From a virus (lineage: Duplodnaviria > Heunggongvirae > Uroviricota > Caudoviricetes): a DNA stretch of 64,000 nt. A program made the position numbers and the translations under genes. Positions 6,643 through 35,907 of this stretch are shown piece after piece. The stretch lies in the IMG/VR virus record IMGVR_UViG_3300020156_000001, positions 170,321-234,320 of that record. One strand, 5' to 3'. The notes under the pieces are model-generated. The model was not told where the DNA came from. It made no database searches and saw only the letters and a list, made by a program, of their open reading frames with translations. Positions within the stretch are counted from its first letter, which is position 1; each line of letters starts with the position of its first letter.

Positions 6643-6697
6643 TCTCCTTAAGTTGATGTCCTATACATGCTAATATAGGACACCATTTGTGTCAACT

Positions 6698-7957: not shown

Positions 7958-7987
7958 TAAACTGCCCTTTTTATTATTGTTGAATAT

Positions 7988-8410
7988 TTATACACGCAGA
8001 GATGCCGCTGCAAGCACTGCCGCTTCTCTACTATTGTAGAGCTGACCCGGATAAGTCAAATTTAGACTACGTTTCGTCATTTCAAACGATTGGTTGTCAT
8101 CAACGACAAAGTAGATTTTGGCCTGAGTTTTCATCAGCATCGGCCAAACAAATTCCCATATGGAACACAAATTGACTATAACGGTATCAACCATATTGAA
8201 GTGGTAATAAAGCCAATCCATAAGGTTGTCGTCTGTCCCTTCACACATATAAAGGGTAACGTCGCGTTCAGGCCAATGGATACCAATGCTGTCGAGGATT
8301 TCCATATGGCCAGTGTGATGGTCGAGGGATAGGATACGATCCGCCCCCGGTTCAATATAGAAATCCGGAGGCGTGACACGGGCAAACTTATGCGGTGATG
8401 TAGGAATCAT
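7988..8410 (-). CDS. hypothetical protein (140 aa)
   Basis: Intact ORF; no motif recognised. Confidence 0.45.
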   Translation of the reverse strand: MIPTSPHKFARVTPPDFYIEPGADRILSLDHHTGHMEILDSIGIHWPERDVTLYMCEGTDDNLMDWLYYHFNMVDTVIVNLCSIWEFVWPMLMKTQAKIYFVVDDNQSFEMTKRSLNLTYPGQLYNSREAAVLAAASLRV

Positions 8411-8413
8411 TGC

Positions 8414-8782
8414 TTATTTAAAGAACTTTGGAACAGCCGTGATAGTGATCGGGCGGATTGCTTGATAGCCCGACTTCAACAGCTCGTTGGAATCAACCGG
8501 TTTACGGCCAGCGTTTCGATCCAAAGACCAAGTGATATGCAGGGTGCCTCGATCCGGACGACGGATCGAACCGTTGAAATCAACAACCAAGCACTCTAGT
8601 GAATCATCACTTGCAAAGCCTACAACACGAAGAGTTCCATCAGCGGGAAGCTCGGAGTTGGTTTCAGTTGCACCAAACTTCCAAGTGCAATGGTGGCCGA
8701 TAAAATCGGAGAACTTTGGCGGAAAAATCCGTGCAAGCTTTGCACGATCTTCCTTTGTAAGTTCGTAACCCGAATAAGCCAA
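8414..8782 (-). CDS. hypothetical protein (122 aa)
   Basis: Intact ORF. Divergent from the topoisomerase operon. Confidence 0.45.
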   Translation of the reverse strand: MAYSGYELTKEDRAKLARIFPPKFSDFIGHHCTWKFGATETNSELPADGTLRVVGFASDDSLECLVVDFNGSIRRPDRGTLHITWSLDRNAGRKPVDSNELLKSGYQAIRPITITAVPKFFK

Positions 8783-8954
8783 TTTGCTCTCCTTGTCCTA
8801 AGTGTGCCTGTCCTAGCATAACAGGAATCACAAATCAACCTACAGGCGTAAATAATTATGTGGCGTGTTTATGTAAACCGCTTCTGGGCTCCTAAATATT
8901 GACTAAACTGGCTCCTAACAATTAGAACTTATATAAAACCTTTGGAAATATGAA

Positions 8955-20119: not shown

Positions 20120-23100
20120 ATGGCTTTAGTCAAACCACCAAATATCAAGTCACCTATTACAGTTAACGCTACTGGTGACACGCCTATCACAAAAACGTTT
20201 ATCGAATGGAAATCAAATAGCGCAACAGGATCGCTTGCTGCTACCAAGATCCAATACACGTTTTTGGGCTTGTCACCGTCAATTGGCGCGGTTACCAAGG
20301 GCGGCGCTCCTGTATTCCAATTCACACAAGCTGATTTGAACAGCCCGGGTGTTATCAACTACACGCCGGATCGTTCCAACAAGAAAACGCTTGATGTTGT
20401 GATGAGACTTCGTGTTACTGACCTAACAGATGGCGACAGTGACACTTTTCCAGTAACTATTCGTTACTCTCTTCCTGACTTGGCTCCAGAAGGTTCTGTT
20501 GGTCCGCTAACTGTTGAAGAAGATGGTCAAGCCACTGTAACAACGGCCCAGATCAACTTTGTCGATTTGTTTGACGCGCCAAACGCCGTGTTTATCGAAA
20601 TTCAAGCTTGGCCCGTACACGGTGATATGCTGTTCAATGGCAAGCTGGTTGGCCCAAGCAGTGCGGTTAAGATCACAATGGCTGATGTTATCGCGGGCAA
20701 GCTCGCATACAAGCACAATGGTGATGAAGCCACTGAAGACCACTTGTTCTTCAAGGTGCGCGATACAAAAAACAAATGGTCTGGTATCACAGTTGGCGAA
20801 CAAACCGAAGACGTAGCCAGCGTTTACGATATGCCAATCAATATCGTACTTTCCGATATTCCACTAAAGGTAGTCAACAAGGGGCCTGCTGAAGTTGTTC
20901 AGTGTGAAGAAGTTACGATTGGTCCGGAATTGCTATCCGCAGATGACGAAGATGATGGCGATCTAACACTGACTTGGAAACTGTCCAAGCTTCCACTCCA
21001 TGGTATCCTAAAGAAGAATGGCACCCCAATGACCGTGGGTACCACTTGGACTGATAGCGATATTAGCTCGGGCAAGATCACATACGAACAGGATTGCTCC
21101 GACACTCCAGTTGACACATTTGAGTTCTCTGTCGAACATTCCAAGGAAAAGCTGGAAAATGTTAGCTTTCCAATCCAGCTGATCAAGAATCTTCCGCCGG
21201 TTATCGAAATCAACGAACTACAAGTTGAAAAGTGTAACACTGGTATTCCTGCTGAAGTTAACATCAAGATCACCGATCCTGAAGGTTTGCTGCCAAAGGA
21301 TATCAAGCTCAAGTATGCGCCAAACACACCAGAGACTCCGCGTCCTAAACATGGTATGATTGGTATCAACGGTAAGACTGGTATTCCAGGTGTAACAGAA
21401 TTCACATACGCTGATATTCTAGCTGGAAATGTCCACTACATTCACGATTGCACGGATCACGATCCCGCAACTGATGAGTGGTGGTTTACTGTTTATGATG
21501 GTGGCCACGAAATCACTGTAAAGCTTCCAATTGTTATCATCTTTAAGGATGACCTTCCTCCCTACTTGACTCAAAACGTTGAGCATTTTGTTGAGCGCAA
21601 CGATGAAGTTTCTTGGAAGATTGACAAGCTAGACTTTACCGACGATGACACCGAATATCCAAAGGTATTCTTTGAACTGGTAACACTACCCGAACATGGC
21701 GAGTTGTTTATCAACGGTCTTCCTGCAGCGGAAGGTCAGAAGATCGCACGTTCGGATTGGGATGATATCGAGTTCCGTTATGTTGCTGGTGCGCCCGACA
21801 ATTCGGTCACAGAAGACCGCGCAATGTTCAAGCTCTACGATGAGAAGAACACTGTGGACGATCTTGCTATTGTGTTCAAGTTCCCACCACCGCCTACGGT
21901 TTGCCCAGAAGTTCTCAACAACTTTATCACAACCGCTTACACGTTGAAGAAAGTAATTTCTGAAATCGACATGTTTGCGTCAAACGAAGGCATTGATTCC
22001 ACTGAATTCGTTTGGACTCTCAAGAAAGCTCCCGTATATGGTGACCTAAGCGTGGGCACGGTTAAGTTGGTTGATGTTCTTCCAACAAAGCCAGATCCAG
22101 CTGACCCGCCAGTGGCGAATACTTGGACGTCCAAGGATATTGAGGACATGCAGTTCTCGTATCAACACCTACGTGATGCTCCGTTTACTGATGAGTTTGA
22201 GTTCTCAGTAACCAACGGCTTCTGCGCGGTTCAAGGCAAAGCAATCATCAAGTTCATCCCAGGCTTGAACATTGATATCAACAAGGTTCTCGAAGTTGAT
22301 CAAGGCTTTACCCCATCGGTAACTCCTGGTCTTATTGACGAAACCTACTTGCTCAGCAGTTCTGGATCTGTTTCGGATCCAGGTCTACTCCTGTACACGG
22401 TAAAGACATTGCCTACAGTTGGTACATTGTATTTGGATGATTACCCAGTTGCACTAAGCGCGACTTCCTACACGTTCTCACAACAGCAAATCAACGATGG
22501 TAAGCTCCGTTACGTACCAAATGATTCCAATCATGAAACTACTGAGGACTTGTTCAAGTTTGAAGTTGTTGATGGTATTGAAAAGCGTGAAGGCGTATTC
22601 AAGATCAAGATCAAGCTTTTGGATACTCCGCCGGAAATTATCATCAACGAACTGGTTGTGGGTGAGCTAACTTGTGGCAGCATTCTGGAAGTTAAGCATT
22701 TGAAGGTAGAGGACGATCAGTCCAGCCCAAGTGAACTTGTGTTTACGCTACTCTCAATTCCACAGTATGGTGAGCTACTAAAGAGCAACGTACCAATGGC
22801 AATCGGCGATACATTCACTTATGGTGATGTTATCAACGGTGCTATGGGCTATTGTGAAACTGAAGAAGGTGCCCTGCTTGACTCGTTTGACTTTACCCTT
22901 ACCGATAAGGGCGGTAATGAAGTAACACCACTTCACTTCCCAATTAAGATCATTCCTCCGCCACCACCGGAGCTTGTAAATGATGGTCTTACAATGGAAC
23001 CTTGCACGGTTCGCGCAATCACAATCAACATGTTGGATGTGAAGAACTTGCGCACCACATTCAATCGCGCGGGTATGGTGTTCAAGGTAACAAAAGCTCC

Positions 23101-23773
23101 AAAGCATGGCGTTCTCAGCAAGGGCGCGGTAGCATTGGCTGTTGGGGATACTTTCACACTTGCGGATCTTCTCGCTAATACCGTCACATACACCAGCATC
23201 TCGTTTAAAACAGATCCTGATTCCTTTGACTTTGATGTACAAAGCGATGTGTTTACTTCCAAGGGCAACACGTTTGATATCAAGCTACGTGCCGTAAACA
23301 ATCCACCTTGGATTTGTGTAAACACGGGTATGTTGGTATTCGAACAGGAAACCAAGGCAGTAACTCTGGACATGCTACAGATGTGCGATGTGGATATGGA
23401 CCGTGATAAGATTGCGGACTTTGATCCAGAAAGTGCAGAAGACCTTTCTCCACTGGTTTATCCGCTTGGTGAAGTTATCAACCCATCGGAAGTCGATGGC
23501 AGTGGTCGCATAAACAAGGATGTTCTCATCGAGTTCCCAGGTGTTAAGTACAAGTTCACGTTTACTGTAAAAGCGGGTTCTGCCCGTGCTATTGTTCGTG
23601 ACCAAAATGGTGCCACACTTGCAAGCTCGATCTGTGCAACATCAGCAAGTGGCGTGGTTGTTATGGAGTTTAGTCCTCCAGTCAGCAGCACACAGATCAA
23701 TTGCCAAGTAATTGAAAATTGTGTCCCAGGTGCAGTTGATCCGGATTGGACATTTGACCTCGCAAAAGCCTAA
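20120..23773 (+). CDS. giant repeat protein (1217 aa) with about 10 cadherin/VCBS-like beta-sandwich repeats
   Basis: A roughly 100-aa unit recurs with the pattern G.[ILV].Y.[HP] ... D.F.F.V.D ... [ILV].[ILV] ... PP.[ILV]. Examples: GKLRYVPNDSNHETTEDLFKFEVVDG ... IKIKLLDTPPEIIINE and GKITYEQDCSDTPVDTFEFSVEHS ... IQLIKNLPPVIEINE. Confidence 0.7.
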   Translation: MALVKPPNIKSPITVNATGDTPITKTFIEWKSNSATGSLAATKIQYTFLGLSPSIGAVTKGGAPVFQFTQADLNSPGVINYTPDRSNKKTLDVVMRLRVTDLTDGDSDTFPVTIRYSLPDLAPEGSVGPLTVEEDGQATVTTAQINFVDLFDAPNAVFIEIQAWPVHGDMLFNGKLVGPSSAVKITMADVIAGKLAYKHNGDEATEDHLFFKVRDTKNKWSGITVGEQTEDVASVYDMPINIVLSDIPLKVVNKGPAEVVQCEEVTIGPELLSADDEDDGDLTLTWKLSKLPLHGILKKNGTPMTVGTTWTDSDISSGKITYEQDCSDTPVDTFEFSVEHSKEKLENVSFPIQLIKNLPPVIEINELQVEKCNTGIPAEVNIKITDPEGLLPKDIKLKYAPNTPETPRPKHGMIGINGKTGIPGVTEFTYADILAGNVHYIHDCTDHDPATDEWWFTVYDGGHEITVKLPIVIIFKDDLPPYLTQNVEHFVERNDEVSWKIDKLDFTDDDTEYPKVFFELVTLPEHGELFINGLPAAEGQKIARSDWDDIEFRYVAGAPDNSVTEDRAMFKLYDEKNTVDDLAIVFKFPPPPTVCPEVLNNFITTAYTLKKVISEIDMFASNEGIDSTEFVWTLKKAPVYGDLSVGTVKLVDVLPTKPDPADPPVANTWTSKDIEDMQFSYQHLRDAPFTDEFEFSVTNGFCAVQGKAIIKFIPGLNIDINKVLEVDQGFTPSVTPGLIDETYLLSSSGSVSDPGLLLYTVKTLPTVGTLYLDDYPVALSATSYTFSQQQINDGKLRYVPNDSNHETTEDLFKFEVVDGIEKREGVFKIKIKLLDTPPEIIINELVVGELTCGSILEVKHLKVEDDQSSPSELVFTLLSIPQYGELLKSNVPMAIGDTFTYGDVINGAMGYCETEEGALLDSFDFTLTDKGGNEVTPLHFPIKIIPPPPPELVNDGLTMEPCTVRAITINMLDVKNLRTTFNRAGMVFKVTKAPKHGVLSKGAVALAVGDTFTLADLLANTVTYTSISFKTDPDSFDFDVQSDVFTSKGNTFDIKLRAVNNPPWICVNTGMLVFEQETKAVTLDMLQMCDVDMDRDKIADFDPESAEDLSPLVYPLGEVINPSEVDGSGRINKDVLIEFPGVKYKFTFTVKAGSARAIVRDQNGATLASSICATSASGVVVMEFSPPVSSTQINCQVIENCVPGAVDPDWTFDLAKA

Positions 23774-23782
23774 GGAGCTAGG

Positions 23783-24904
23783 ATGACTGCTTATTTTAAG
23801 ATCCACAAGCTTCCCGCTCTAGGCTTGCTTATGAAAAATGGAATCCCACTTCAGGTGGGATCCAAGTTCACTCAAAGCGATATCAACGAAAATCGTATCA
23901 CTTATCGTCACACTGCGATAACTGGTCAGAACGCATTGGACTCGTTTGATTTTACGCTTTGGGATTCCGAGCTTGGTGCCATTACAACTTCCTCTTATGG
24001 TCCATGTATGCCACCTAGAGATATTGAAACCCCTGCTGATGGTGTGTTTCGTTTTGCTATCTCTATCCTAAATGTGCCACCGATCAACACGGTTACACCG
24101 GATACGCTTGAACTGCTTGAAACCGAAACCCTTACTTTGACAATGGGTATCTTTAACGTGGTCAACGCGGGATTTACTCCTGATCAAGTTATCCACACCC
24201 TGCGCAAGCCACTATCTCACGGATATATCACATTGCGCGGTAAACGCTCATCCACGTTTACTCAAGCCGATGTAAATGCAGGTGACGTAAAGTATGTGAA
24301 CACGCACGTAGGCACTGGTATCGAACGTATTGAAGTAACATCATGCAACTTGCGTAGCGGCTGCATTGATTTTGATTTTACCATCAACATTTTGGAACGT
24401 TTCAAGATTACCGGCGACAACGTTATCTACGTAAAGACGGGCAGCCGTTTTGTTTGGGAATTTACAGCAAATCGTCCATCAGTGCTTTGGTCACTATCCG
24501 GTGGAACTGAGGAACGTCCACCATATGCAACGGAACGTGACCTCTCAATCATAGGTTGGTCTTCCTATGCAATGTCAAGCGATCAACCCTATGATAGCGA
24601 AGGCCGTGGTCCGGGTTATGATAAGTTGTTCCGCAACGTAAGAGAGACATTGTATTGGGATGGTGGGCTTCCAAAGGGAATATATTTGAGCAACATTGGT
24701 TACATGACCTGCTCACTTCGTAACCCGCCAAGTCTTGCAGGAAGCCAACATTGGACAATCCCAAACACTCCGGGTGAATATCCGTTTGAGATGATTGCCT
24801 TTGATGCCACAACTGGCCAAATGGATTCCCGTAAATATATGCTAGTCGCGACCATGTCTGGTTTCAGCGGCAGTGGCCTAAGCTCGGAAAGTAAAGATCT
24901 ATGA
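23783..24904 (+). CDS. repeat protein (373 aa) with cadherin/VCBS-like repeats
   Basis: NRITYRHTAITGQNALDSFDFTLWD and GDVKYVNTHVGTGIERIEVTS. Stop overlaps the next gene's start. Confidence 0.65.
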   Translation: MTAYFKIHKLPALGLLMKNGIPLQVGSKFTQSDINENRITYRHTAITGQNALDSFDFTLWDSELGAITTSSYGPCMPPRDIETPADGVFRFAISILNVPPINTVTPDTLELLETETLTLTMGIFNVVNAGFTPDQVIHTLRKPLSHGYITLRGKRSSTFTQADVNAGDVKYVNTHVGTGIERIEVTSCNLRSGCIDFDFTINILERFKITGDNVIYVKTGSRFVWEFTANRPSVLWSLSGGTEERPPYATERDLSIIGWSSYAMSSDQPYDSEGRGPGYDKLFRNVRETLYWDGGLPKGIYLSNIGYMTCSLRNPPSLAGSQHWTIPNTPGEYPFEMIAFDATTGQMDSRKYMLVATMSGFSGSGLSSESKDL

Positions 24905-27900
24905 ATTTACACGAACACGCCGTCATTGAAGAATATGACAAGTACGCGATCTTTGAATTGACCAAGATTCCAACACGTGGTAACCTGCTTTTGGATGGCG
25001 TTATCATGAAGGTTGGTAGTCGCTTTACTCAAGGCGATCTACGTAACGGTAATCTCAAGTACAAGCATACGGCAAACGAAGGTATGGCCAAGATCGCTTA
25101 TGATGCGTTCTTCTTCAGAGTTCCAATCAATGACAAAGCTGTTGTTGATGAAAACACCAAGTACAGCAAATGTTTGCCTGTAAGTGGTGGCCCAAAGGGC
25201 GGTGAATTTAAGTTCCCAATTATCATCACTGTGCTTCCTTATCCTCAGGAACTTCGCAATGTTGAAATAAACATTATGGAAGACCAAACAGTTTGCTTGA
25301 ACAAAGGTCACTTGTTCTATTCTTCTGATACAAAAGAAGTTCAGCAGTATTTTAAAAAGCCTGATGTTCAGATTGAAAAGGGCGGCAACGAAGCTTTTTA
25401 CTTTTGGAAGCGTTTTGCTGGCGATGTAAGCTTTGAAAACGTAAGCAAAAATGCCCCACCAAGCAGTGATGCCCACACTTGGGCATATAATGCGGAAACC
25501 CGCGGCATCTACAACATCAAGAATACTTCCAACTACACTGGTATGGTAACAACTAGAACCAGTGAAAGCTTTATGATGGCTTCTACAATGAGTTCCAATG
25601 CGGCGGATGACGACGTTATTGGTATGGTTGTAGCTTATGCGGAAGAAGATGGCGTTCCTACCACAATCAGCGTTGTTCGTTCCGGTGGCTGGAATGGAAC
25701 CGGTGCAAGTACCCTTACTTGGGCTATTATCCAAACCAAGGGCAACAATCGTACTATTCTAAAGAACGGAAGCGATACAGCTAAGAACCTATTGGGTAAC
25801 ACCAAGGGCCAAGCTTGGGACAAACTTGGATATTCACGTGTTGAGGTAAAGCGCGAAGGTACTAAAATTATTGCCAAGTGCAGCCAGTTTAGCGGCGCAA
25901 CAAATGGCGCACCAAATGCGGTAACTGCAATCGATGATTCCACAACTATGGAATTCACATTGCCCGCACCATTTAACTTGCCTTGCCAATACGGTCTAAG
26001 TGCGATGTCTCAGGCCGGCGCCACATTTGATGATATTGAATGGGCTGAGTTGCCTTATCCTCCGGCAGATCCACCAGAGCCGGATCCTACTTTGGATCCT
26101 ATGTTCGAACGTTTTCCAATTACCTATACCGTAAGCAGCAAGTCGAGCGAAGCATCCGCTGAGTTCCTTCTCAACGGAAAGCCGATGAAGCCCGGCGATA
26201 CCTTTACAAATGGTGACATATCAAATGGTTTGATTTGCGTAAAGGGCAAAAACGCAGGCGCTGGTGCAGAGTTCTTCTCTTTCTCAGCATGTGTGAACTC
26301 GGTAAAATGCACAAGCGGAACATTCAAGGTTAAGGTAACTCCTTGGCCATATCCAAAGATGGAAAAGAATTCCGCTACTATGGAAGAATGCTCGGAAATC
26401 ACAATCAACGATAAGAACATGTTGTTCACAGTTGAATTTGGTTCCACTGATTCCGATATCAAGATTACTCTTAATGAAACGCAAACAGCCGCTGACAATC
26501 CAGATGGTCGTGTCGAGGTTATTCCTAAGACATTCACTATGGCCGATGTTAAGGCTGGCACAGTACGACTCAAGCACGCTTGTGATACTGTGGTGTGGAC
26601 TGAAAAGCTTACATTTGATGTATGCACGAACCACAATAAGTGCGTGAGCAAGCCATTCTACGTTAAGATCACTCCAATCCCAGTTGAAGAAGAGCCTGCA
26701 CCCGATAACATTCAAGTTAGCGAACAGGGTTGCGTTTACAAGCTAAACTTCTACGGTGTTTGGGCTCCAGTTGGTGATTGCGGTCTTTGGGCTGATCTAA
26801 AGGGTCGCGTATTGCCTGAGCCTAAAAATGAACCCACTGGTAAGATCCTATACGTAAAGCACGCGCTTCCTGAACCCGTAACTTTGGTTGCTTTGCCAAA
26901 GCCAGAGAAACCAACTGAAAACAAGTGGTTTAAGAGTCCAGTTCAACTGCCTGCACAACCTGAACCATCAGATGGTTGTGAGCCGTTGCCACCGGAACCA
27001 ACACCAGCCCAGCTACCAACCGAGCTACAAGACTACATTATTGAAATGGAAGCTTGGGGTGATTATGGTGCAGGTCCTCCACTGTTTGACGTTATTGCAA
27101 CACAAGCCGTTGGTGGTATGAAGTGGATTGCCCGTGATGAACCAATCTCCGATCTAAAGGAGCATGGTCAAAAGGGTCGTCAATACTTTAGCTGGCGTGT
27201 TCCTGCGGCAGTTTGGGGCAATGGTCGTGACATTGTTATCGACTATGTTCAAAACGAACCTCCTGGTGCCGCAACAGACCGTAACATGTACTTGTACTGG
27301 GTAAAGGTCAACGGTAAGCTTTATGACTTTGGCGGTTCTGGCCGTTATATTGATCGTGCGGATGTTGAACGCCGTGGTCTAAACTATGACCATTGCCGTT
27401 GGACTATTTCGGATGATTTCCCTCTCCCACCATACCAGCTTCCTGCTCCAGTACCTGCGGAAAAGCCTGATACAGTTGCCAAGCAAAAGGTTCCTGCAAA
27501 ATGCTTTACTGATCCAAAGACCGGTACTAAGTGGATCACAGACCAAAACGGTGTATATCATCCAGTTGGAAAGCCAACGGATAAGTTGGAAGACTTTGAT
27601 GCTACCCCGCTTATCAAGACTCAACCATTCCTAGTTGAAGTGGAAGATCTTGCAAGTGTTCCAGCGGAATGGCCTGGTCCGGTTCTACACAAGCCAACAA
27701 ACAGCGTTTACACGAAGGTCAACGACGAATACGTTCACGTAAAGCAGCCGTTTACTGAATCTTATAAGCTGGATGAATTCCAGTTTATTGGAGCCAACGA
27801 GTTCTGGCTACAGCATGGCGCAACGTTTGACTTCTTCTTGTTCAGCAACCGCTTCTACGTGCGTTTCGATATTATGGGTGAATATGGTCACTCGATTATC

Positions 27901-28866
27901 GAACAATCCAACCCGATCATCATGGATCTTGGTGGATCGTTGGTTGGTAGTGGTGCAAGCATTTTGGGCAATCGTACAAACAACTACAATAACCAAAACC
28001 GCACATCACGCATTCCAAATGCGATGGGAATGTGGCCACGTCGTTACTGTCAGGTGGTTTCGCCAATCACTACAATGTGGGACGGTATGATCCAAAACAG
28101 CACAAGCATGCCATACTATCATGACAGGAACAACAATGGTATGAACCCATACCATCACGGCACTTACTTGATCAAGCTCGCGGGTACTGAATCCTATGCA
28201 GGCTTTGTTGCAAGTCAGCGTCCAAAGTTGGTACCCGAGCGTTGGACCGGAACAAAGTTCTGGAACCCTGATACAAAGAAGGGCTTTGGTCTAGTAAAGA
28301 ACCAAAAGGTTTGGCATGATATGACCACTGTTTGGTCACACAGCGGCTATGGTAGTGCTCCTAGCCAGATGGAAGGTGTTCGTAACAACGGTTATGGTAC
28401 TCACACACAGGCTATTGCCTACGGTGGTATCGAATTTGGAACTTATAATCCTTGGCTACATTTTGAGTCTTGGAAGATTCCTCAGAACACTGCATTCAAC
28501 CCACCGGAAGCTCCACGTGGTTGGTGCAATGGTATGCTTACGTTCCTAGATTACTCCTCAATCTACGACTCCAAGGAAATGCGCAATGGTGGTCCTGTTG
28601 AATCATCTCCACCGCGTAAGGACTACACAATGGAGTTCAAGGTTCGCGGTTATGATATCGCAACAGGCGAGGAAAAGTTCCGCACGTATCGCGTTCACTG
28701 GAACGCAACGGGTACGAACAAAAAGGGACAAACAAAGGCAACCACAGATGCAACGACGACAGGACTAACTGGATTCCTGCCGCCGAAGCCAAAGACAGCG
28801 GTTTGCTACTTTGATGACTTTAACGTCCCAGGCAACTGCCGTATTTTGGACGATAAAGGAAAGTAA
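24901..28866 (+). CDS. giant protein (1321 aa): N-terminal cadherin/VCBS-like repeats plus a distinct W/Y/G/N-rich C-terminal half
   Basis: GNLKYKHTANEGMAKIAYDAFFFRV at the N-terminus. The C-terminal 600 aa is non-repetitive and aromatic-rich. Confidence 0.65.
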   Translation: MNLHEHAVIEEYDKYAIFELTKIPTRGNLLLDGVIMKVGSRFTQGDLRNGNLKYKHTANEGMAKIAYDAFFFRVPINDKAVVDENTKYSKCLPVSGGPKGGEFKFPIIITVLPYPQELRNVEINIMEDQTVCLNKGHLFYSSDTKEVQQYFKKPDVQIEKGGNEAFYFWKRFAGDVSFENVSKNAPPSSDAHTWAYNAETRGIYNIKNTSNYTGMVTTRTSESFMMASTMSSNAADDDVIGMVVAYAEEDGVPTTISVVRSGGWNGTGASTLTWAIIQTKGNNRTILKNGSDTAKNLLGNTKGQAWDKLGYSRVEVKREGTKIIAKCSQFSGATNGAPNAVTAIDDSTTMEFTLPAPFNLPCQYGLSAMSQAGATFDDIEWAELPYPPADPPEPDPTLDPMFERFPITYTVSSKSSEASAEFLLNGKPMKPGDTFTNGDISNGLICVKGKNAGAGAEFFSFSACVNSVKCTSGTFKVKVTPWPYPKMEKNSATMEECSEITINDKNMLFTVEFGSTDSDIKITLNETQTAADNPDGRVEVIPKTFTMADVKAGTVRLKHACDTVVWTEKLTFDVCTNHNKCVSKPFYVKITPIPVEEEPAPDNIQVSEQGCVYKLNFYGVWAPVGDCGLWADLKGRVLPEPKNEPTGKILYVKHALPEPVTLVALPKPEKPTENKWFKSPVQLPAQPEPSDGCEPLPPEPTPAQLPTELQDYIIEMEAWGDYGAGPPLFDVIATQAVGGMKWIARDEPISDLKEHGQKGRQYFSWRVPAAVWGNGRDIVIDYVQNEPPGAATDRNMYLYWVKVNGKLYDFGGSGRYIDRADVERRGLNYDHCRWTISDDFPLPPYQLPAPVPAEKPDTVAKQKVPAKCFTDPKTGTKWITDQNGVYHPVGKPTDKLEDFDATPLIKTQPFLVEVEDLASVPAEWPGPVLHKPTNSVYTKVNDEYVHVKQPFTESYKLDEFQFIGANEFWLQHGATFDFFLFSNRFYVRFDIMGEYGHSIIEQSNPIIMDLGGSLVGSGASILGNRTNNYNNQNRTSRIPNAMGMWPRRYCQVVSPITTMWDGMIQNSTSMPYYHDRNNNGMNPYHHGTYLIKLAGTESYAGFVASQRPKLVPERWTGTKFWNPDTKKGFGLVKNQKVWHDMTTVWSHSGYGSAPSQMEGVRNNGYGTHTQAIAYGGIEFGTYNPWLHFESWKIPQNTAFNPPEAPRGWCNGMLTFLDYSSIYDSKEMRNGGPVESSPPRKDYTMEFKVRGYDIATGEEKFRTYRVHWNATGTNKKGQTKATTDATTTGLTGFLPPKPKTAVCYFDDFNVPGNCRILDDKGK

Positions 28867-30324
28867 TTAGGAGGCCTTTTTCAGGGCCTCCTTTAGCTTG
28901 GACTCCGCGCTTACAAGCTCGTTTGCAGCAAGTACGCGCTGAGCCCGTGCTTCCTGCGTGATGGCAATCGATTCCTCGATCATAGCAATCGTCAAATCGT
29001 TTGCCTTCTTCACGCTTTCGATGTCATAGACACCACGTTCGATTTCACGACGCGCCGCTGCATTGCCCTGCTTGAGAGCTTCGGCATTCTTGACCAGCAG
29101 TTCGTTTTGCAAGTCGGAAACTGCCTTGGTTGTTTTCGTGGCCTCGTCCATCTTCCACCGCTCAACAGCGATAACAAGCTGGCTTTCCCACATTGGAATC
29201 GTGTTGATCAACTGAGTGTCGATCTTCTGCACGAGGTCCTTGTCGTTGTTCTGCACAAGCCGAACCTGCGGCAGCGTTTGCATAACAACCGTACGTGTAA
29301 GCTTGATGTCGTGGACACGACGTTCAAACGAATCGCGCTTGGCAACAAGATCGTTGAGGTTCTGCGCGTCAATAAGTTCGCCTGAAGCTTCGGCCTTTGC
29401 CTTGAGTTCTGGAATATGCTTGGCATCAAGCTCGGCGAGGATTTGTTCACCCGCGCTTACATAGTTGCCGAGATCACGGAAGTATTCGAGAGTTGCCGCA
29501 TAAAGCTGATCCAGCTGCTTTACGCTTTTCAACAGTTCCACCTTGTGGCGTTCCAGCTTGTTTGCAACCGCATCGATCTGGCTCTTGACGGTTTCAAAGC
29601 TTTGGATGAATTCGGCCATTGGCGCGATCTTGCCCATTAGCTTGCCGAAAAAGCCGATCTCGTTGGAACCAGCAGCCTTGGAAAAGTCCAGCCCGCGCAT
29701 CTGCAGGACCATCTTGTTGAGCTCACTGCCCACTTCGCCGGCTTCGTTGGACTTTACGCCCTCAAGCATCTGGGCGTTAAGCTGACTTACGTTGCGCTGG
29801 ATGCCTGTACCCCAGCTGATAACGCTGGTGCTATCATCCAAGTTAAGCTCGGCTTTGGCTTTTTCAATCTTGTCGGCTTCGACAACCATTGCCTTGTTGA
29901 TGTCATCCTCGGTCAGCTTTGCCGTGACCGCCACCGGCAATTGAAGTTCCATTGTTCGCTCCGTGTTAATTCGATGGGTTAATCGTTGAATGTCAGGTCG
30001 TTGCATTTGCTCCAAAAGCTCACCAAACATTTTGGCTTGGTCATGGAGGTATTGTGGAAACTGTTGATGGATTTTTGGATCCAATGCAACCGCGCGAGAA
30101 TAAACTTCGATGGAATCTGCAATTTCTTCTACAAGCGGTTTCATCCGCATGAGAATAGCGTGGCCCATTGTACTGCGCTTGCATTCGTCCATGATCATGT
30201 CGATCCGCTTATAGATCAACAGGATTTGTTCATCCACTCCCCATGACAACCGCTTGCCAGTGGCGCGAACAATTTTCCAGTTCACCCTTTCGACAGTATC
30301 GTAAAGCTGCTCAAAATTCATCAA
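28867..30324 (-). CDS. TelA-like (toxic anion resistance family) protein
   Basis: 485-aa all-helical protein whose architecture and C-terminal region are reminiscent of TelA/YaaN. Operonic with XpaC-like and flotillin genes, as in known TelA contexts. Based on recollection of the family, not a search. Confidence 0.55.
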   Translation of the reverse strand: MMNFEQLYDTVERVNWKIVRATGKRLSWGVDEQILLIYKRIDMIMDECKRSTMGHAILMRMKPLVEEIADSIEVYSRAVALDPKIHQQFPQYLHDQAKMFGELLEQMQRPDIQRLTHRINTERTMELQLPVAVTAKLTEDDINKAMVVEADKIEKAKAELNLDDSTSVISWGTGIQRNVSQLNAQMLEGVKSNEAGEVGSELNKMVLQMRGLDFSKAAGSNEIGFFGKLMGKIAPMAEFIQSFETVKSQIDAVANKLERHKVELLKSVKQLDQLYAATLEYFRDLGNYVSAGEQILAELDAKHIPELKAKAEASGELIDAQNLNDLVAKRDSFERRVHDIKLTRTVVMQTLPQVRLVQNNDKDLVQKIDTQLINTIPMWESQLVIAVERWKMDEATKTTKAVSDLQNELLVKNAEALKQGNAAARREIERGVYDIESVKKANDLTIAMIEESIAITQEARAQRVLAANELVSAESKLKEALKKAS

Positions 30325-31010
30325 CGCTGCTCCAGCTTGAGCTGGTCGTTGAGAACTTCCATATCGATAGCAAGTGCGCGAACATCGTTGGACCGAATGT
30401 CCGTGAGCAGATTGTTAAAGCTCACATACATGGTATCAACAGTTTTACCAAAATCTTCATCTAGTCGAATCCGCTCGGCCGTTCGTGCTTGGTATTGATT
30501 GCTTGTGTAGCCCGTGTGTTGGAGTTCAACAAACTTGCCTACAATGCTTTGGGCTTGATCCAAATGCACGTTAAACCAGCTACGCGCGATACGGAAGTCT
30601 TTGGGATCATTAACAATCTCTTCGATGATCCCGTTACCCACGCTTACCACCCCAAGTACCTTATACTTTAGGTCGGTGTCTACAAGACGCGTAGAAGCTT
30701 CACGGATCGCGGCAAGCTTGGATTGTGCGCCACGTATTTCAGCGGAAAACTCGTTGAGATTGATATCTGTACGGCCCTCCAAATGCTTGAACTCCAAGCG
30801 TTTGAGTTGGGAAAGTTCCTGTACAGCTTCTCGATTGTCGAGCACACCCAGCATATTATCTGCAAGCTTCATCGAAATCCATCCCGCAACAATTGCAACA
30901 GCCGTTGCAATCATAAACGTGATAACGGAAGCGCCTAGAATTTGGACCAGACCATATCCGGCCAGGATAGCCGCAATAATACCGATCAAAGTGCTGAGAA
31001 TCTTGTTCAC
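30321..31010 (-). CDS. XpaC-like membrane protein (two N-terminal TM helices plus helical domain)
   Basis: N-terminus ILSTLIGIIAAILAGYGLVQILGASVITFMIATAVAIVAGWI gives two TM helices. A roughly 180-aa helical domain follows. Sits directly next to the TelA-like gene (start overlaps), as the xpaC-yaaN pair does in Firmicutes. Confidence 0.5.
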   Translation of the reverse strand: MNKILSTLIGIIAAILAGYGLVQILGASVITFMIATAVAIVAGWISMKLADNMLGVLDNREAVQELSQLKRLEFKHLEGRTDINLNEFSAEIRGAQSKLAAIREASTRLVDTDLKYKVLGVVSVGNGIIEEIVNDPKDFRIARSWFNVHLDQAQSIVGKFVELQHTGYTSNQYQARTAERIRLDEDFGKTVDTMYVSFNNLLTDIRSNDVRALAIDMEVLNDQLKLEQR

Positions 31011-31126
31011 AAGTTCATCCTAGCTAACACAATTTTGCCCACATATTACACGAACAGGTACCAAAGTCTAGCGTTGATATGGCAAAAGGCTCCAAAAGAG
31101 GAGCCTTCGCCGTTATTGTATTTGGA

Positions 31127-32845
31127 TTACTTGCCCGACTTTTCAGCCTTGATGCCGGCCAAACGCTGAAGCTCTTCCGGATTGTAGCTTTCAACCGGTG
31201 CTTTGGGCGTTGGAACGCTTTGCACTTCTTCTTCGACTTGCTCAGCATCGTCAAAGTCGAATGTGCTTGCCGGCACAACACCAGCGAGACCATTCTTCAG
31301 ATCAAAGCCAGCGGCACCAACAATTGCATCAACAAGCGGAGCCTGTGTGCGATAGTTTAGCAGGGCGTTGGTAAGATCCTGTGGAACATTTCCAGCCGAA
31401 CCGCCGCCAACTGTTGCGCCACCATTTGCACCAAGACCCGAAATGCTGACCACACGAGCCGACTTTACTGCGGCCATTGGCTTTGCAAGTTCAGCAACCA
31501 ACTGCGGTGCAGCTTCGATTGCTGCAAGCTTGATACGCAGGGCGATCTGCTCTGGGCTCAAAGCGTTGGCAGCATCAGCAAGCGCACGTTCACCAGCAGC
31601 ACGGACTTCGTTTTCACGCTCGAGAACATCTGCAAGCGTTTTACGTGCCTGGGCCTGCAAATCAGCTGCTTCAGCTTCCGCCTTTGCGCGAACAGTAATG
31701 CCTGCGCTTGTACGTTCAGCTTCCTTGGTCGCTTCAATAACAGCAACCTGACGATCACGTTCCGCCCTGGCAATTGCTTCCTCGGTGATAACGTTCTGCG
31801 CTGCCTTAACAGCGTTTGCACGAGCTTCGTCGGCCTTTGCCTGTGCAAGCGATTCAGCTTCCGAACGCTCGTTGACCGCGATCTTGGCCGCCTGTTCAGC
31901 AATACGAATTGCTTGCGTATTGGTGATTTCAGCTTCCTGACGGGCACGAGACGATGCTACGCGAGCAAGTTCAGTTGCCTGTTCCGCCTCGATTGTTGCA
32001 ACATCCGCTTCACGCTTGCGATCAGCACGTTGCTTTGCAAGTTCAGCTTCCTGTTCGGCACGCCGAGTTTCAACTTGCTTTTCCTGATCAAGACGGGCGA
32101 ACTCGTCCTGTTGCTTGATGGTCAGCGACTCCTGGTTCGCTTCAAAATTGCGCTTTTCAATAGCAACGCGAGCTTGCTGCTCGATTTCGTTACGTTCACG
32201 CGCCTTTTCCTGCGTTAGCTTGGCTAGGTTGGTGAGACCTTCAGCATCAAACGCATTGTTTGGGTTGAGGAACTTCTGGTCCGTCTGGTCAAGCTTGGTA
32301 AGCGAAACGCTTTCCAGTTCGAGACCGTTCTTTTCCAAGTCCGCAGCAACCGTGTTTTGCACGTTCTGTACAAACTCAGCGCGTTGTTCGTGCAAGTGCT
32401 GCATATCCATGCCAGCTGCAACCGAGCGAAGCGCGTCAACAAACTTGTCTTCAATGATCTGACGAAGCGCGTCAGGATTCATCGTTTTTGTACCAAGTGT
32501 TTGCGCGGCCAGTGCAATTGCATTGGTGTCAGGCTTTACACGAACAAAGAAGGTCGCGCCCACGTCTGCTCGCATACGATCCTTGGTGATCAAGGCGTCT
32601 GTGCCAGTACGAGTAAGCTCGATCTTGAGCGTTTGCATGTTAACTTCAAGCGTTTCATGCAGGATTGGGAAGATCAACGCACCGCCGTTGATCACGACCA
32701 GCTGACCTGTAAAGCCCGTACGCACAAACGCACGTTCCTTTGAAGCTCGCTTGTAAAGTCGGGAAACCATCAGGCCGACGATCAGGATTGCCACAAAAGC
32801 AATCACAATAATCATACCCAAGGTCACAAGGTTTGTATCAAACAT
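31127..32845 (-). CDS. flotillin / SPFH (band-7) family protein, YqiK-like, with long EA-rich coiled-coil
   Basis: N-terminal TM helix. SPFH-domain region (... LVVINGGALIFPILHETLEVNMQT ...). Then an extended EA repeat coiled-coil (AEQEAELAKQRADRKREAD ...). C-terminal flotillin-like tail. Confidence 0.85.
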   Translation of the reverse strand: MFDTNLVTLGMIIVIAFVAILIVGLMVSRLYKRASKERAFVRTGFTGQLVVINGGALIFPILHETLEVNMQTLKIELTRTGTDALITKDRMRADVGATFFVRVKPDTNAIALAAQTLGTKTMNPDALRQIIEDKFVDALRSVAAGMDMQHLHEQRAEFVQNVQNTVAADLEKNGLELESVSLTKLDQTDQKFLNPNNAFDAEGLTNLAKLTQEKARERNEIEQQARVAIEKRNFEANQESLTIKQQDEFARLDQEKQVETRRAEQEAELAKQRADRKREADVATIEAEQATELARVASSRARQEAEITNTQAIRIAEQAAKIAVNERSEAESLAQAKADEARANAVKAAQNVITEEAIARAERDRQVAVIEATKEAERTSAGITVRAKAEAEAADLQAQARKTLADVLERENEVRAAGERALADAANALSPEQIALRIKLAAIEAAPQLVAELAKPMAAVKSARVVSISGLGANGGATVGGGSAGNVPQDLTNALLNYRTQAPLVDAIVGAAGFDLKNGLAGVVPASTFDFDDAEQVEEEVQSVPTPKAPVESYNPEELQRLAGIKAEKSGK

Positions 32846-32858
32846 TTGCTTACCTTTT

Positions 32859-33494
32859 TTAGTGGATTGGAGTTACGTAGAAGAGGCCAAGAACAGGGTC
32901 ATATTGTTCCAAGCGAACTGTTGTGCGTTCAGGGATAACGAGCCCCTTAGTGACACTGCGCACGGTAACGTTGTGCTGAGTACCATGCGTGTCGTAAACC
33001 GTAGCTTGGCAGCTACGATCAAAAGTTGCCGCTCCATAGCCAATCACACCAGTCAACCCTTCGAGGTCTTCCAATGTGCTGGCATAAGTTTCATCGCGTG
33101 GAAGAACCTTTACCAACAACTTACTAAGTGTGCCGGAAACTGCGAGAGCCGATGGAATAGCCAGTGCAACTGCAAGAGGAATGGGGAGAAAAATCCCAAC
33201 TGCGGACATTGCAACCCAGTTATAAAGCAGACCGCTTATTCCAAACGATGCAATCAGTACGGTAAGCACCATCATAAATGGAACTTTACCAAATCCTAGA
33301 AAGCCCGCAAAGTGGCCGAAGACCCCATCATGGTCGATATGAAAATGATGGTCGATGTTGGTATCGTGGCCTAAGAATGAGAAACCAACAACTAAGCCAA
33401 TAAGTTCCATAAAACCAATGGCTGCAACGATTGCCAACGCTCCCATGAAGGGAAAGTTGGCATCGCTGAAAAAGAACCCCATCATGCGGTTCAT
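32859..33494 (-). CDS. NfeD/YqiJ-like membrane protein
   Basis: Multi-TM N-terminal half with a His-rich loop HDTNIDHHFHIDHDGVFGH. Soluble beta-rich C-terminal domain. Immediately upstream of the flotillin gene, as in the yqiJ-yqiK pair. Confidence 0.5.
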   Translation of the reverse strand: MNRMMGFFFSDANFPFMGALAIVAAIGFMELIGLVVGFSFLGHDTNIDHHFHIDHDGVFGHFAGFLGFGKVPFMMVLTVLIASFGISGLLYNWVAMSAVGIFLPIPLAVALAIPSALAVSGTLSKLLVKVLPRDETYASTLEDLEGLTGVIGYGAATFDRSCQATVYDTHGTQHNVTVRSVTKGLVIPERTTVRLEQYDPVLGLFYVTPIH

Positions 33495-33573
33495 CTCCTA
33501 ACTAACTCTGCAACATCATGCTGCAATGTGCCTTAGTTAGTAAGGATTGAGTACCAAGTCAACAAAAGAGTGG

Positions 33574-34110
33574 CTAGCCTGTGGGGTCCAAAGAAGCCAG
33601 CTTATTCAAAAGTACGGAGTGATGGGTTGTTGTGTCGATAACCATCGCGCAAGTTGTTTTTGTTACGCGAACATAGTTGGTTCCGCCGGCGAAAAACGCT
33701 CCATTAACTGCAAAAGGCTCGACAAAAATACCAGTTGAGTCAATCCGACGAACATTCCCAAGAAGCATTTCGTTTTGGGAATTTTTACTGCTTGATTTTG
33801 TTACCACGATTAGCTTGCCTACTTCAATGACCCGCCCGTTGAAGTCGAGAAACTCCTTTTGGTAGTCATTATCGCATACAAGTTCTACTTCATGTGAGGA
33901 CGATTGTTTGAGGATTGCACCGCTAAACTTGTGCTTCTTTCCATCAATTTCCAGCACATAATCATGCCGATCAAAGTGTACTCGCTTAACCTCTACAATT
34001 TTGCCAACCGATCCCTTGTATTTGCCCTCCGTTACTGTGGCATAGACTTCCGACTGCTTCATTCTTTCTTGAATAAAGGCAGCACTGTTAAACGACATCA
34101 GTGAAATCAA
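33574..34110 (-). CDS. hypothetical protein (178 aa)
   Basis: Intact ORF. Confidence 0.45.
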   Translation of the reverse strand: MISLMSFNSAAFIQERMKQSEVYATVTEGKYKGSVGKIVEVKRVHFDRHDYVLEIDGKKHKFSGAILKQSSSHEVELVCDNDYQKEFLDFNGRVIEVGKLIVVTKSSSKNSQNEMLLGNVRRIDSTGIFVEPFAVNGAFFAGGTNYVRVTKTTCAMVIDTTTHHSVLLNKLASLDPTG

Positions 34111-34380
34111 CGTTTTACACCCTTATATACCCATTTGTCGCAGCCTAATAGGCTGTCTTGTCTTGCTCTGCATACTTTGGTAAACAGGTGTGCTTTGCTG
34201 CACAATCCGTATTACATTGCATTCAAATAGCAGCTTTTACAAACGAATTTTTTGGTGTAGATGTAGATTTTTTAAAGATTTTAATACAGTTCAAGCGGCG
34301 CAACGGAATGATGCATCAAAACGTTACCAGACTTGATTTTTCAGGATATCTTAGATAAACCTAAAACAGCAAAACGCTAT

Positions 34381-34797
34381 CTAGCATATGAATGAAGCGT
34401 CATAATCGCTGACTGTGGTTGGAAACTCACATATTATTTTAAACATCGCAGCATCGCGTGGGCTTTTGAAAATAAAGCCTAAGTATGTACCTGTAGTGGG
34501 TCCTTTGTCACAAGGAAAGGTGCCCCATATGGGGTAGGCAACATCTTCGAAATTTTCAGTATAGCTGGCGAGTTTTGAGAAGTGATGTTCATGAAAACAC
34601 ATATTCTCAAAATCAGGAATAGAGAATGCACTCATATGGTCGCACAAATATTGGCTGGTCAAGTTTAGCTCATATTTGCACAAGCGATAAACCCGCATAT
34701 AGGGGCGGGTTTCGCATTCATCGTCTGGCACATAACAATGATGACGGATACCACCATTGTTAGCTATTTGGAACATTACAACCTTGTAAGTGTCCAT
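34381..34797 (-). CDS. hypothetical protein (138 aa)
   Basis: Intact ORF, Cys/His-rich. Confidence 0.45.
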   Translation of the reverse strand: MDTYKVVMFQIANNGGIRHHCYVPDDECETRPYMRVYRLCKYELNLTSQYLCDHMSAFSIPDFENMCFHEHHFSKLASYTENFEDVAYPIWGTFPCDKGPTTGTYLGFIFKSPRDAAMFKIICEFPTTVSDYDASFIC

Positions 34798-35069
34798 TAA
34801 ACCAAGCTTACTCCATAAGCGGCAGCTTCAGCCGATCCAAACGGACCCAATAGTTCGATTGGTGTCTCATCATCTTCGTAGGAATATGTTTCACGATAAA
34901 ACACTGTTCCTGCGGAATCGTTTGCCATGAGAATTTTATGGCAACGAAGCAAAGCCTTTTCTGTTACCACAGCAATTACTTCAGGGTTGAGGTCAACTTC
35001 GGCAACAACTTCAAATTCTTCAAATACTTCTTCTACTGGCACGTGCAAGTTCCTTCTGAACCATCGCAA
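34797..35069 (-). CDS. hypothetical protein (90 aa)
   Basis: Intact ORF. Start/stop overlap with its neighbour. Confidence 0.4.
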   Translation of the reverse strand: MRWFRRNLHVPVEEVFEEFEVVAEVDLNPEVIAVVTEKALLRCHKILMANDSAGTVFYRETYSYEDDETPIELLGPFGSAEAAAYGVSLV

Positions 35070-35332
35070 TTATCAAGACCACGACCGCAACCCGGCTGTG
35101 GAAGAGAATCCAAAAATGCTTGACGCTTGGCTGCTTCATCAACTGCAACCGGCGCTACGTCTGTGATAAAATCTTCAATACGCTTGGCCGCATCAAGAAT
35201 GTCACCAACATGATCGGCACTTTCGGTAAAGCCGCTTGCTGGCAAGGTTACGCTGTAAAGCTCCATTGCCGTATTGAGGATCTGCATCTTACGCTCAAAC
35301 TGATTTTCGTCGATATATTTGAGTTTGTTCAT
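35033..35332 (-). CDS. hypothetical protein (99 aa)
   Basis: Intact ORF. Confidence 0.4.
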   Translation of the reverse strand: MNKLKYIDENQFERKMQILNTAMELYSVTLPASGFTESADHVGDILDAAKRIEDFITDVAPVAVDEAAKRQAFLDSLPQPGCGRGLDNCDGSEGTCTCQ

Positions 35333-35409
35333 TTTGGTCTCCTAATATCCAATGTACATGTCCTACTTATCAAAATCAAAATAGATAAATTAATGGATTG
35401 GAGAATTTT

Positions 35410-35907
35410 ATGAGATCAGCACTTTTTGGCAAGTCCGACTACTTTATGCGTATTAAGCGCAAACCTGCACAAGAAGACCTTTATCAAAAGGTAATCCGCA
35501 ATGAGCTTTCTGATGAAGAAATCGAAAATTGTGGCCAGCCTCTTTGGATTCGTGAAGCACTACGGGAAATCAAAACCCGTGGCGGCCTAACCCAATGGCA
35601 ATGTGTAGACAAAGTAATTGAGGAAGCCGAAGCTGCTCAAGCTCGTGCCGCCAACCAAACCTATCCAGTGTATGAGTGGACTGCACCAATGATGGAAGTC
35701 ACACCGGAAAAGGGAATGAGCTTGGAAGTTTTTCCGGGCAACCTAATGCTGGTAGACCGCCCACGTGGCCAAGTCAAAATTGATTATTCACTTCTTACAT
35801 TGTCGCCTGCTAAAATAGACGCATTACTGGGTAATGCCAAATATATTTGCGATTCAACTGACACTGGCTTTGTCGAACTCGTTGGAAGCCGTAAACAGCG
35901 CATTTAA
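35410..35907 (+). CDS. hypothetical protein (about 165 aa)
   Basis: ATG at 35410 with GGAGAA 5 nt upstream. Confidence 0.45.
   Translation: MRSALFGKSDYFMRIKRKPAQEDLYQKVIRNELSDEEIENCGQPLWIREALREIKTRGGLTQWQCVDKVIEEAEAAQARAANQTYPVYEWTAPMMEVTPEKGMSLEVFPGNLMLVDRPRGQVKIDYSLLTLSPAKIDALLGNAKYICDSTDTGFVELVGSRKQRI

Follow-up and report, generated by a model that had tools for sequence, protein, structure and literature searches.

A conserved YqiJ–flotillin–XpaC–TelA gene cassette in one clade of huge phages

Four co-directional genes on the minus strand of a 64,000-nucleotide (nt) stretch of the virus record IMGVR_UViG_3300020156_000001 (the whole stretch is hereafter called the window) encode, in the 5'-to-3' order, a YqiJ-like protein, a flotillin, an XpaC-like protein and TelA. 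Within one clade of huge phages, whose contigs measure 436–481 kb and which includes the Sinorhizobium phage Phosso, this cassette is conserved as a membrane module. It brings known gene pairs together in a new conserved combination and in a new host, the huge phages, and no flotillin system encoded by a phage seems to have been described before. The presence of the cassette genes, taken alone, is only mildly surprising because jumbo phages carry many host-like genes. The preferred reading of its function, to which a rough probability of 0.45 is assigned, is that of a membrane-protection module that would stabilise the host cytoplasmic membrane during infection. This reading draws on the conservation of the cassette in two genomic contexts, the co-divergence of its four proteins, purifying selection, and the recurrent linkage of SPFH proteins with TelA or PspA. 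The open reading frames (ORFs) occupy positions 28867-33494 of the window, where a reading of this DNA from its letters alone (hereafter the sequence-only reading) had placed them; the genes, and the two parts of TelA, are the following.

32859..33494, minus strand: yqiJ-like gene; 211 amino acids (aa), or 208 aa if translation starts at the fourth codon; YqiJ_N E=1.7e-19, 70.5 bits
31127..32845, minus strand: flotillin gene (YqiK/FloT-like SPFH protein); 572 aa; Band_7 E=4.6e-18, Flot E=5.8e-24
30321..31010, minus strand: xpaC-like gene; 229 aa; N-terminal transmembrane (TM) hairpin and cytoplasmic four-helix domain; PF10112 E=1.4e-20
28867-30321, minus strand: telA gene; 484 aa from the ATG at 30321; TelA (PF05816) E=1.4e-88
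28867..29949, minus strand: TelA core; soluble, all-helical, with a long helical hairpin; Pfam match at residues 154-482
29950..30321, minus strand: TelA N-terminal extension; ~124 aa, TPR-like helical repeat, lineage-specific

The window comes from a phage contig of ~480 kb that is related to Phosso. The phage origin assumed in the sequence-only reading is borne out by PHROG matches of genes in the window (topoisomerase II subunits, tail-collar fibre, virion proteins and tRNA nucleotidyltransferase), by the 100% identity of the window flotillin to a protein (P0121) encoded on a 480,361-bp metagenomic contig, and by the synteny of the cassette region with the isolated 469-kb phage Phosso (L001).

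These four genes are found, in unchanged order, in the window and in 13 other phage loci, namely Phosso, the contigs L005 (480,938 bp), L008 (214 kb) and L009 (44.7 kb), another metagenomic contig, and 8 of the 15 IMG/VR flotillin loci (the cassette-bearing IMG/VR contigs include those of 462, 436 and 465 kb). The 15 IMG/VR loci were recovered with a flotillin alignment as the query; a query with a single flotillin sequence found nothing. Further matches to TelA, flotillin and XpaC on same-sized contigs (468,850, 469,944, 340,625, 91,703, 76,622, 25,626 and 17,013 bp) suggest that there are more copies of the cassette. The loci occupy two contexts: in subclade A (the window, Phosso and L009), a gene for a KOW protein lies upstream and giant Cadherin_3-like virion genes lie downstream, and in subclade B, DUF4326 is found upstream and SNase/NADAR(/SIR2) downstream.

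The four proteins diverge in concert across the loci, with correlations of pairwise identity of r=0.75–0.92, and the identity to the window proteins drops to 50% for the flotillin and to 20% for XpaC. The ratios of nonsynonymous to synonymous substitution rates (dN/dS) between the loci L010 and L020 are 0.09, 0.08, 0.17 and 0.06 for the four genes, which indicates purifying selection. A neighbor-joining tree groups the flotillins of the cassette loci in one clade (72% bootstrap), within which subclades A and B are supported at 100% and 90%, respectively; the ten bacterial flotillins that were sampled group together in a clade apart from it (100%). This topology fits a cassette that was assembled once and then inherited vertically.

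Among 50,697 phage records, a full-length flotillin is found in Phosso only. The other three flotillin matches in this set are short unannotated fragments, two of them enterobacterial (1.5–2.8 kb, with ~60% identity over short stretches), and the enterobacterial fragments are most simply taken to be host DNA. The flotillin matches no PHROG family (TelA is the only cassette gene that has one), a megablast search of the cassette against phages yields no match, and none of the five proteins compared with PADLOC-DB 2.0 has a match at E<=0.01. TelA is common in phages (223 records, phrog_5890), with no XpaC, YqiJ or flotillin nearby in the four examples that were checked, those of Staphylococcus S6, Yersinia fHe-Yen9-04, E. 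coli phiWec179 and a 636-kb uncultured phage. In Phapecoctavirus phages such as phiWec179 (L107:691-1665), TerC is encoded ~2 kb upstream of TelA, and an SprT-like metallopeptidase directly upstream, a context that differs from that of the cassette.

The sequence-only reading knew of no described phage system with this composition, and PADLOC, the PHROGs, the 50,697 phage records and a jumbo-phage review all agree with it. Nor is the cassette a common, already annotated module: in Phosso, the sole GenBank phage that has these genes, it is not annotated as a unit and two of the four genes are labeled ‘hypothetical’, an annotation that is corrected here. No paper describing the cassette and none on Phosso was found, and a literature search for flotillin together with jumbo phages returned only an unrelated 200-kb Xanthomonas phage for which SPFH proteins are merely listed.

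The family assignments of the sequence-only reading (NfeD/YqiJ-like, flotillin, XpaC and TelA) are all upheld by Pfam matches, and the TelA and XpaC profiles are matched near full length, so that the cassette is not reduced to a generic flotillin. Its description of membrane segments and helices likewise agrees with hydropathy, which gives 3, 1, 2 and 0 TM segments in the order of the genes. In the YqiJ-like protein, the TM segments are at residues 20-38, 71-89 and 101-119, the YqiJ_N (PF21001) match covers positions 1-114 of the 116 in the profile, and the C-terminus is a putative OB-like domain with a weak match to YqiJ_OB (PF07290; 22.3 bits versus a cut-off of 25.4, profile positions 2-37 of 64); the orthologues in L006, L007 and L008 carry a precomputed YqiJ_OB match. 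The loop between the first and second TM segments (residues ~36-56; window 33330-33390, minus strand) is rich in His and Asp, HDTNIDHHFHIDHDG. The His-rich loop noted in the sequence-only reading is thus present but peculiar to this phage, whereas most relatives have an acidic, calcium-binding-like loop of the DxDxDGNGIPDYLE type, which suggests a divalent-cation site. The yqiJ gene lies directly upstream of the flotillin gene in all phage and bacterial flotillin loci compared. The flotillin combines a single TM segment (residues 9-27), PF01145 at residues 40-189 and PF15975 at residues 393-514 (both above the gathering score) and an Ala/Glu-rich coiled coil (65% A/E/Q/R/K over residues 200-420); it is 62.5% identical to the SPFH protein of Phosso, and an NCBIfam search returned only a FloT match far below the threshold.

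The XpaC-like protein has TM segments at residues 4-22 and 24-42 and matches Halogen_Hydrol (PF10112) with 74.5 bits against a cut-off of 29.8, over positions 1-190 of the 191 in the profile; its invariant motifs are DPKD-R-ARSWFN-HL and IDMEVLNDQLK. TelA has no TM segment, is 75% identical to the TelA of Phosso, and matches positions 2-331 of the 332 in the Pfam profile as well as phrog_5890 (E=5e-47). The earlier ORF call for telA was 28867..30324. The start is most likely the ATG at 30321, with a 1-nt overlap with the xpaC stop, because an independent gene call on the source contig and the same overlap in P0001/L110, the only close relative that shares the long form of TelA, agree on it; telA is predicted to be translationally coupled to xpaC.

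The TelA extension is found only in the window phage and in P0001/L110 and is much less conserved than the core. In the AlphaFold2 (AF2) model of TelA, which is all-helical, the extension is a confident helical bundle (predicted local distance difference test score, pLDDT, of ~80–89 over residues 1-120); all 33 of its phmmer matches are multi-repeat proteins, and the four that were checked are all TPR proteins. It probably serves as an extra surface for protein docking. Overall, the models of TelA and XpaC are of moderate confidence (pLDDT 67.6 and 68.8, respectively). PDB sequence searches with these two proteins return nothing meaningful. In the Foldseek searches, matches to helical bundles of the ClyA/AhlC/MakE/Hbl type and to PspA/Vipp1 recur weakly; these were judged non-specific for long helices and were not used. 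No match to the PspA_IM30 domain is detected by Pfam in any of the four cassette proteins.

The sequence-only reading described the genes as tightly spaced and fused into one operon. The spacing is tight within the pairs, with a 13-nt gap between yqiJ and the flotillin gene and the overlap between xpaC and telA, but the gap between the flotillin gene and xpaC is 116 nt, and the operon itself does not stand: a hairpin and a promoter-like site lie between the flotillin gene and xpaC in all 12 phage loci examined, for which the 170 nt after the flotillin stop were compared. The candidate regulatory features in the window are these.

33557..33562, minus strand: -35-like box TTGACT upstream of yqiJ (putative unit-1 promoter); consensus match
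31081..31111, minus strand: terminator-like GC-rich hairpin with a T-rich tail, end of unit 1; RNAfold -21.3 kcal/mol
31043..31070, minus strand: promoter-like site of unit 2; TAGACT at 31065-31070, 16 nt, TAATAT at 31043-31048
31018-31021, minus strand: putative ribosome-binding site AGGA before xpaC
28869..28892, minus strand: hairpin over the telA stop, possible bidirectional terminator; terminator scan, RNAfold -15.9 kcal/mol

The hairpin with its T-rich tail is found after the flotillin gene in 12 of the 12 loci, at the same position and with the same shape, and its sequence differs among them. A TAGAC(A/T) box precedes xpaC in 11 loci (TTGATT in the remaining one), and a -10-like TAnnnn follows at a fixed spacing of 16 nt in 11 of the 12 (CATACT at 17 nt in the other). 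Upstream of yqiJ, the compared loci have TTGAC(A/T) within ~100 nt, or ATGAC(A/G) in three cases. Because a terminator-like hairpin and a sigma-70-like promoter separate the flotillin gene from xpaC, the cassette is read as two adjacent transcription units that are kept together, yqiJ–flotillin and xpaC–telA, each with its own putative promoter and terminator; going by sequence and folding, read-through between them is possible. At the far end, telA abuts a convergent gene for a 1321-aa virion protein, and strong hairpins follow telA in the subclade B phages as well.

As a phage-wide promoter motif, TAGAC(A/T) was rejected: the window has 6 occurrences of GTAGACW where ~16 would be expected. 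The yqiJ leader (window 33495-33562, minus strand) contains inverted repeats, with CAATCCTTACTA conserved between the window and Phosso and a perfect 10-bp repeat in Phosso; as an RNA structure these were discarded too, the window version not being significantly stable (z=-1.4). Rfam has no match in 28000-35000 at E<=1.

The association of SPFH proteins with TelA recurs in bacteria. The bacterial loci whose TelA is closest to that of the phage (the best 80 of at least 588; 41–50% identity) come mainly from Gammaproteobacteria (Methylococcales, Chromatiales, Thiotrichales and Competibacteraceae). They were annotated over 10-kb flanks with hidden Markov models (HMMs) built here; as some contigs are truncated, the counts are minimum values. 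XpaC is encoded in the upstream flank in 72 of the 80, nearly always adjacent, and 42 encode, downstream of TelA and again nearly always next to it, an SPFH protein of the Band_7_1 type that carries a GYF_2 domain. Such an XpaC–TelA–Band_7_1(+GYF_2) operon is present, for instance, in L002:5121-9615, where a gene for a 378-aa double-zinc-ribbon protein follows it; the operon also occurs in 41 other loci among L025-L104. No description of this bacterial operon was found; it is reminiscent of pspA-ydjGHI of Bacillus subtilis, with TelA in the place of PspA.

The closest named bacterial flotillins are those of Alphaproteobacteria (Sphingomonas, Blastomonas and Sandarakinorhabdus; 46–50% identity). 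Two of the four bacterial flotillin loci examined contain only YqiJ and flotillin, and the other two, from related organisms (L007:2253-7677 and L111:4154-8698), add a TelA of a divergent subfamily (403–414 aa) and a 240-aa protein to the cluster, along with an extra 281-aa polytopic membrane protein in L007. The 240-aa protein is XpaC-like in form, with a TM hairpin and a helical domain, and was nevertheless dropped as a candidate XpaC for lack of detectable homology (hhalign probability of 2%). This bacterial TelA–YqiJ–flotillin linkage is independent of the phage one because its flotillin nests inside the bacterial clade. Linkage of an SPFH protein with TelA or PspA has arisen independently at least three times, and SPFH scaffolds seem to be repeatedly linked to helical membrane-stress effectors. 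The impression left by the sequence-only reading, that the composite lacks a parallel, therefore holds for described phage systems but not for bacteria, with a different SPFH gene attached to XpaC–TelA in 42 of the 80 loci and the TelA–YqiJ–flotillin cluster. A further arrangement is seen in the 104-kb contig L015 (IMGVR_UViG_3300043172_001415), where, at 6661-9740, YqiJ–flotillin is immediately preceded by a gene for a 219-aa PspA/IM30 protein (E=2.6e-10, which passes the Pfam cut-off), with genes of phage families around them; this is a phage-borne PspA–SPFH module that parallels the XpaC–TelA variant.

Under the membrane-protection reading, the phage would install its own inner-membrane scaffold after infection. 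The flotillin, anchored by one N-terminal TM helix, would oligomerise into an SPFH cage or microdomain, the 3-TM YqiJ/NfeD partner would bind it, and a TelA layer tethered by XpaC would form beneath the flotillin/YqiJ microdomain. Both units would act on the same membrane patch, as YdjI recruits PspA in B. subtilis, with TelA as a PspA-like sub-membrane effector. The net effect would be a host cytoplasmic membrane that stays stable and energised while the huge phage completes its long infection cycle, whether the threat is envelope stress, abortive-infection effectors of the host that target membranes, or attack from outside.

What is known of the bacterial counterparts is compatible with such a role. 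In B. subtilis, the sigma-W envelope-stress regulon includes xpaC-yaaN, yuaF-floT-yuaI, yqeZ-floA, pspA-ydjGHI and yceC-H (PMC3498285), and the membrane localisation of PspA requires the SPFH protein YdjI (PMC8581546). In Enterococcus faecium, XpaC and TelA alter daptomycin binding, and deletion of xpaC lowers the minimal inhibitory concentration of daptomycin eightfold, only with telA intact, and redistributes phospholipid microdomains (PMC6811118). The comparative genomics of the phage-shock-protein (PSP) system lists PspA operons with flotillin and YqiJ/YuaF and never mentions TelA or XpaC (PMC11237479). A bolder version of the proposal, in which the cassette would be the first virus-encoded flotillin machine, a flotillin/YqiJ cage that recruits TelA via XpaC with TelA as a PspA-like polymer, and would serve as a self-contained device for membrane repair or insulation, is unlikely.

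Several observations weigh against membrane protection. No YqiJ or flotillin is encoded within 10 kb of TelA in any of the 80 closest bacterial loci. Six other IMG/VR contigs (104–543 kb), on deep separate branches of the flotillin tree, carry YqiJ–flotillin without XpaC–TelA, so that this pair works without the other. The terminator and promoter between the two units imply that they could be expressed separately. These sites, moreover, are matches to a consensus or to a fold that were recognised only through the 12-locus comparison: a generic promoter and terminator scan of 28500-35500 gives counts equal to chance, and the unit-2 promoter-like site in the window scores below the threshold of that scan. 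Foldseek searches of the AF2 models against the PDB give nothing significant (best E=0.037 for TelA and 0.082 for XpaC), so that the analogy between TelA and PspA is drawn from gene context only.

The chief competitor of membrane protection, itself somewhat unlikely, is superinfection exclusion or defence against rivals, in which an altered sub-membrane layer would block DNA injection by other phages, colicins or tailocins. The two mechanisms overlap and differ in the beneficiary and the threat. The jumbo-phage review of 224 genomes, in which TelA appears as a Ter component and flotillin, SPFH, band-7, PspA and YqiJ are absent, proposes such a role, with TelA sub-membrane structures blocking the entry of phages and xenobiotics and Ter genes acting against superinfecting phages (PMC7824862). 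The 223 phage records with TelA alone are in line with it, and sigma-70-like promoters fit the early expression by the host RNA polymerase that exclusion needs. However, none of TerB, TerC, TerD and TerF is encoded in the cassette or its immediate neighbours (window, Phosso, L005, L008 and L009), PADLOC has no match, and what experiments have documented for bacterial XpaC/TelA and flotillins relates to membrane-active antibiotics and the organisation of the membrane, not to the entry of phages.

The terminator and the separate promoter between the pairs, each of which is self-sufficient in bacteria, would also suit two uncoupled neighbours, adjacent by chance or through common regulation, or a cargo that mainly benefits the host by conferring tolerance to tellurite, antibiotics or xenobiotics on a carrier or pseudolysogenic cell; xenobiotic resistance during pseudolysogeny is indeed suggested in the jumbo-phage review (PMC7824862). 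This is quite improbable in view of the conserved order and adjacency in 14 of 14 phage loci, in two contexts and down to 20–50% protein identity, of the three or more independent origins of the SPFH linkage, and of the strong purifying selection on all four genes in huge phage genomes of the lytic type. Least probable of all is a membrane platform for the phage's own processes (anchoring of replication or assembly, holin control or lysis timing), in which the flotillin microdomain would concentrate membrane proteins of the phage or the host, with TelA and XpaC as accessories. Flotillins are scaffolds for membrane protein complexes, and structures of flotillin cages are reported (PMC11260169, PMC13000311). 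The subclade A cassette abuts giant virion-protein genes, and the six large viral contigs with YqiJ–flotillin alone would fit a platform; yet subclade B, flanked by DUF4326 and SNase/NADAR, does not keep the structural neighbours, linkage to a holin, portal or replication gene is absent, and the recurrent bacterial XpaC–TelA–SPFH linkage, which points to stress protection, would be left unexplained.

Flotillins, NfeD/YqiJ proteins, XpaC and TelA occur widely in bacteria, but how they work is poorly understood, and TelA is still named for its tellurite phenotype. Three independent gene arrangements in which an SPFH scaffold is joined to TelA or PspA offer a testable functional link, and Phosso, a carrier of the cassette that grows in culture on Sinorhizobium meliloti, offers a tractable system. 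The cassette is also a candidate phage strategy, an imported envelope-stress or microdomain module that may protect a long infection cycle or exclude rivals. If the bolder version with the flotillin machine were correct, the recurrent SPFH–TelA linkage in bacteria would reveal the cellular role of TelA/XpaC as SPFH-dependent membrane-stress effectors, and huge phages would bring their own envelope-stress response and keep the host membrane working.

The surroundings of the cassette vary. In the window, three consecutive large plus-strand genes (20120-28866; 1217, 373 and 1321 aa) converge on telA; they encode Cadherin_3-like domains, have PHROG virion or tail-fibre matches, and have counterparts in L001:9981-18646 and L009:11615-17713. 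A PAAR-domain gene lies a few kb away on the other side of the cassette in Phosso and L009. A few kb upstream of the cassette in subclade B phages (L005:1176-4324 and L008:1-3195) are genes for PAS/GAF–HATPase–response-regulator hybrid kinases and stand-alone response regulators. Elsewhere in the window (6698-7957, minus strand), a 419-aa protein strongly matches phrog_4339 (E=1.9e-103) and, more weakly, AAA+/protease-like ATPases, which suggests a ClpX- or Lon-like ATPase encoded by the phage.

Among the known systems, the jumbo-phage Ter/TelA genes (Iyer et al. 2021) show that TelA in large phages is not new, but these are standalone TelA genes or TerC/TerD/TerF operons, unlike the cassette. 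The PspA–SPFH systems, such as pspA-ydjGHI of B. subtilis, similarly combine a helical membrane-associated stress effector with an SPFH scaffold and small TM proteins, whereas the cassette is devoid of PspA/IM30, and neither sequence comparison nor the fold search links its TelA to PspA. In the bacterial XpaC–TelA–Band_7_1(+GYF_2) triad, an SPFH protein is genetically attached to XpaC–TelA as in the cassette; there, however, it is a YdjI-like paralogue of 365 aa with no Flot domain and no YqiJ partner, and its gene is located downstream of TelA (upstream of XpaC in the phages), often followed by that for a zinc-ribbon protein. With the bacterial xpaC–telA pairs (xpaC-yaaN of B. subtilis and xpaC-telA of E. 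faecium), which are tied to envelope stress and membrane-active antibiotics, the cassette shares the families, the gene order and the overlapping stop and start; it differs in being phage-encoded, in the location of the pair downstream of a flotillin unit (0 of 80 bacterial loci) and, in this lineage, in the TPR-like TelA extension. The NfeD/YqiJ–flotillin operons (yqiJ-yqiK of Escherichia coli and yuaF-floT of B. subtilis) consist of the same two families in the same order, and the closest named bacterial flotillins share the YqiJ partner. The cassette departs from these operons in being encoded by phages, in the His-rich loop of the window YqiJ where that of its relatives is acidic, and in a flotillin clade of its own that, in this clade of phages, is always followed by xpaC–telA.

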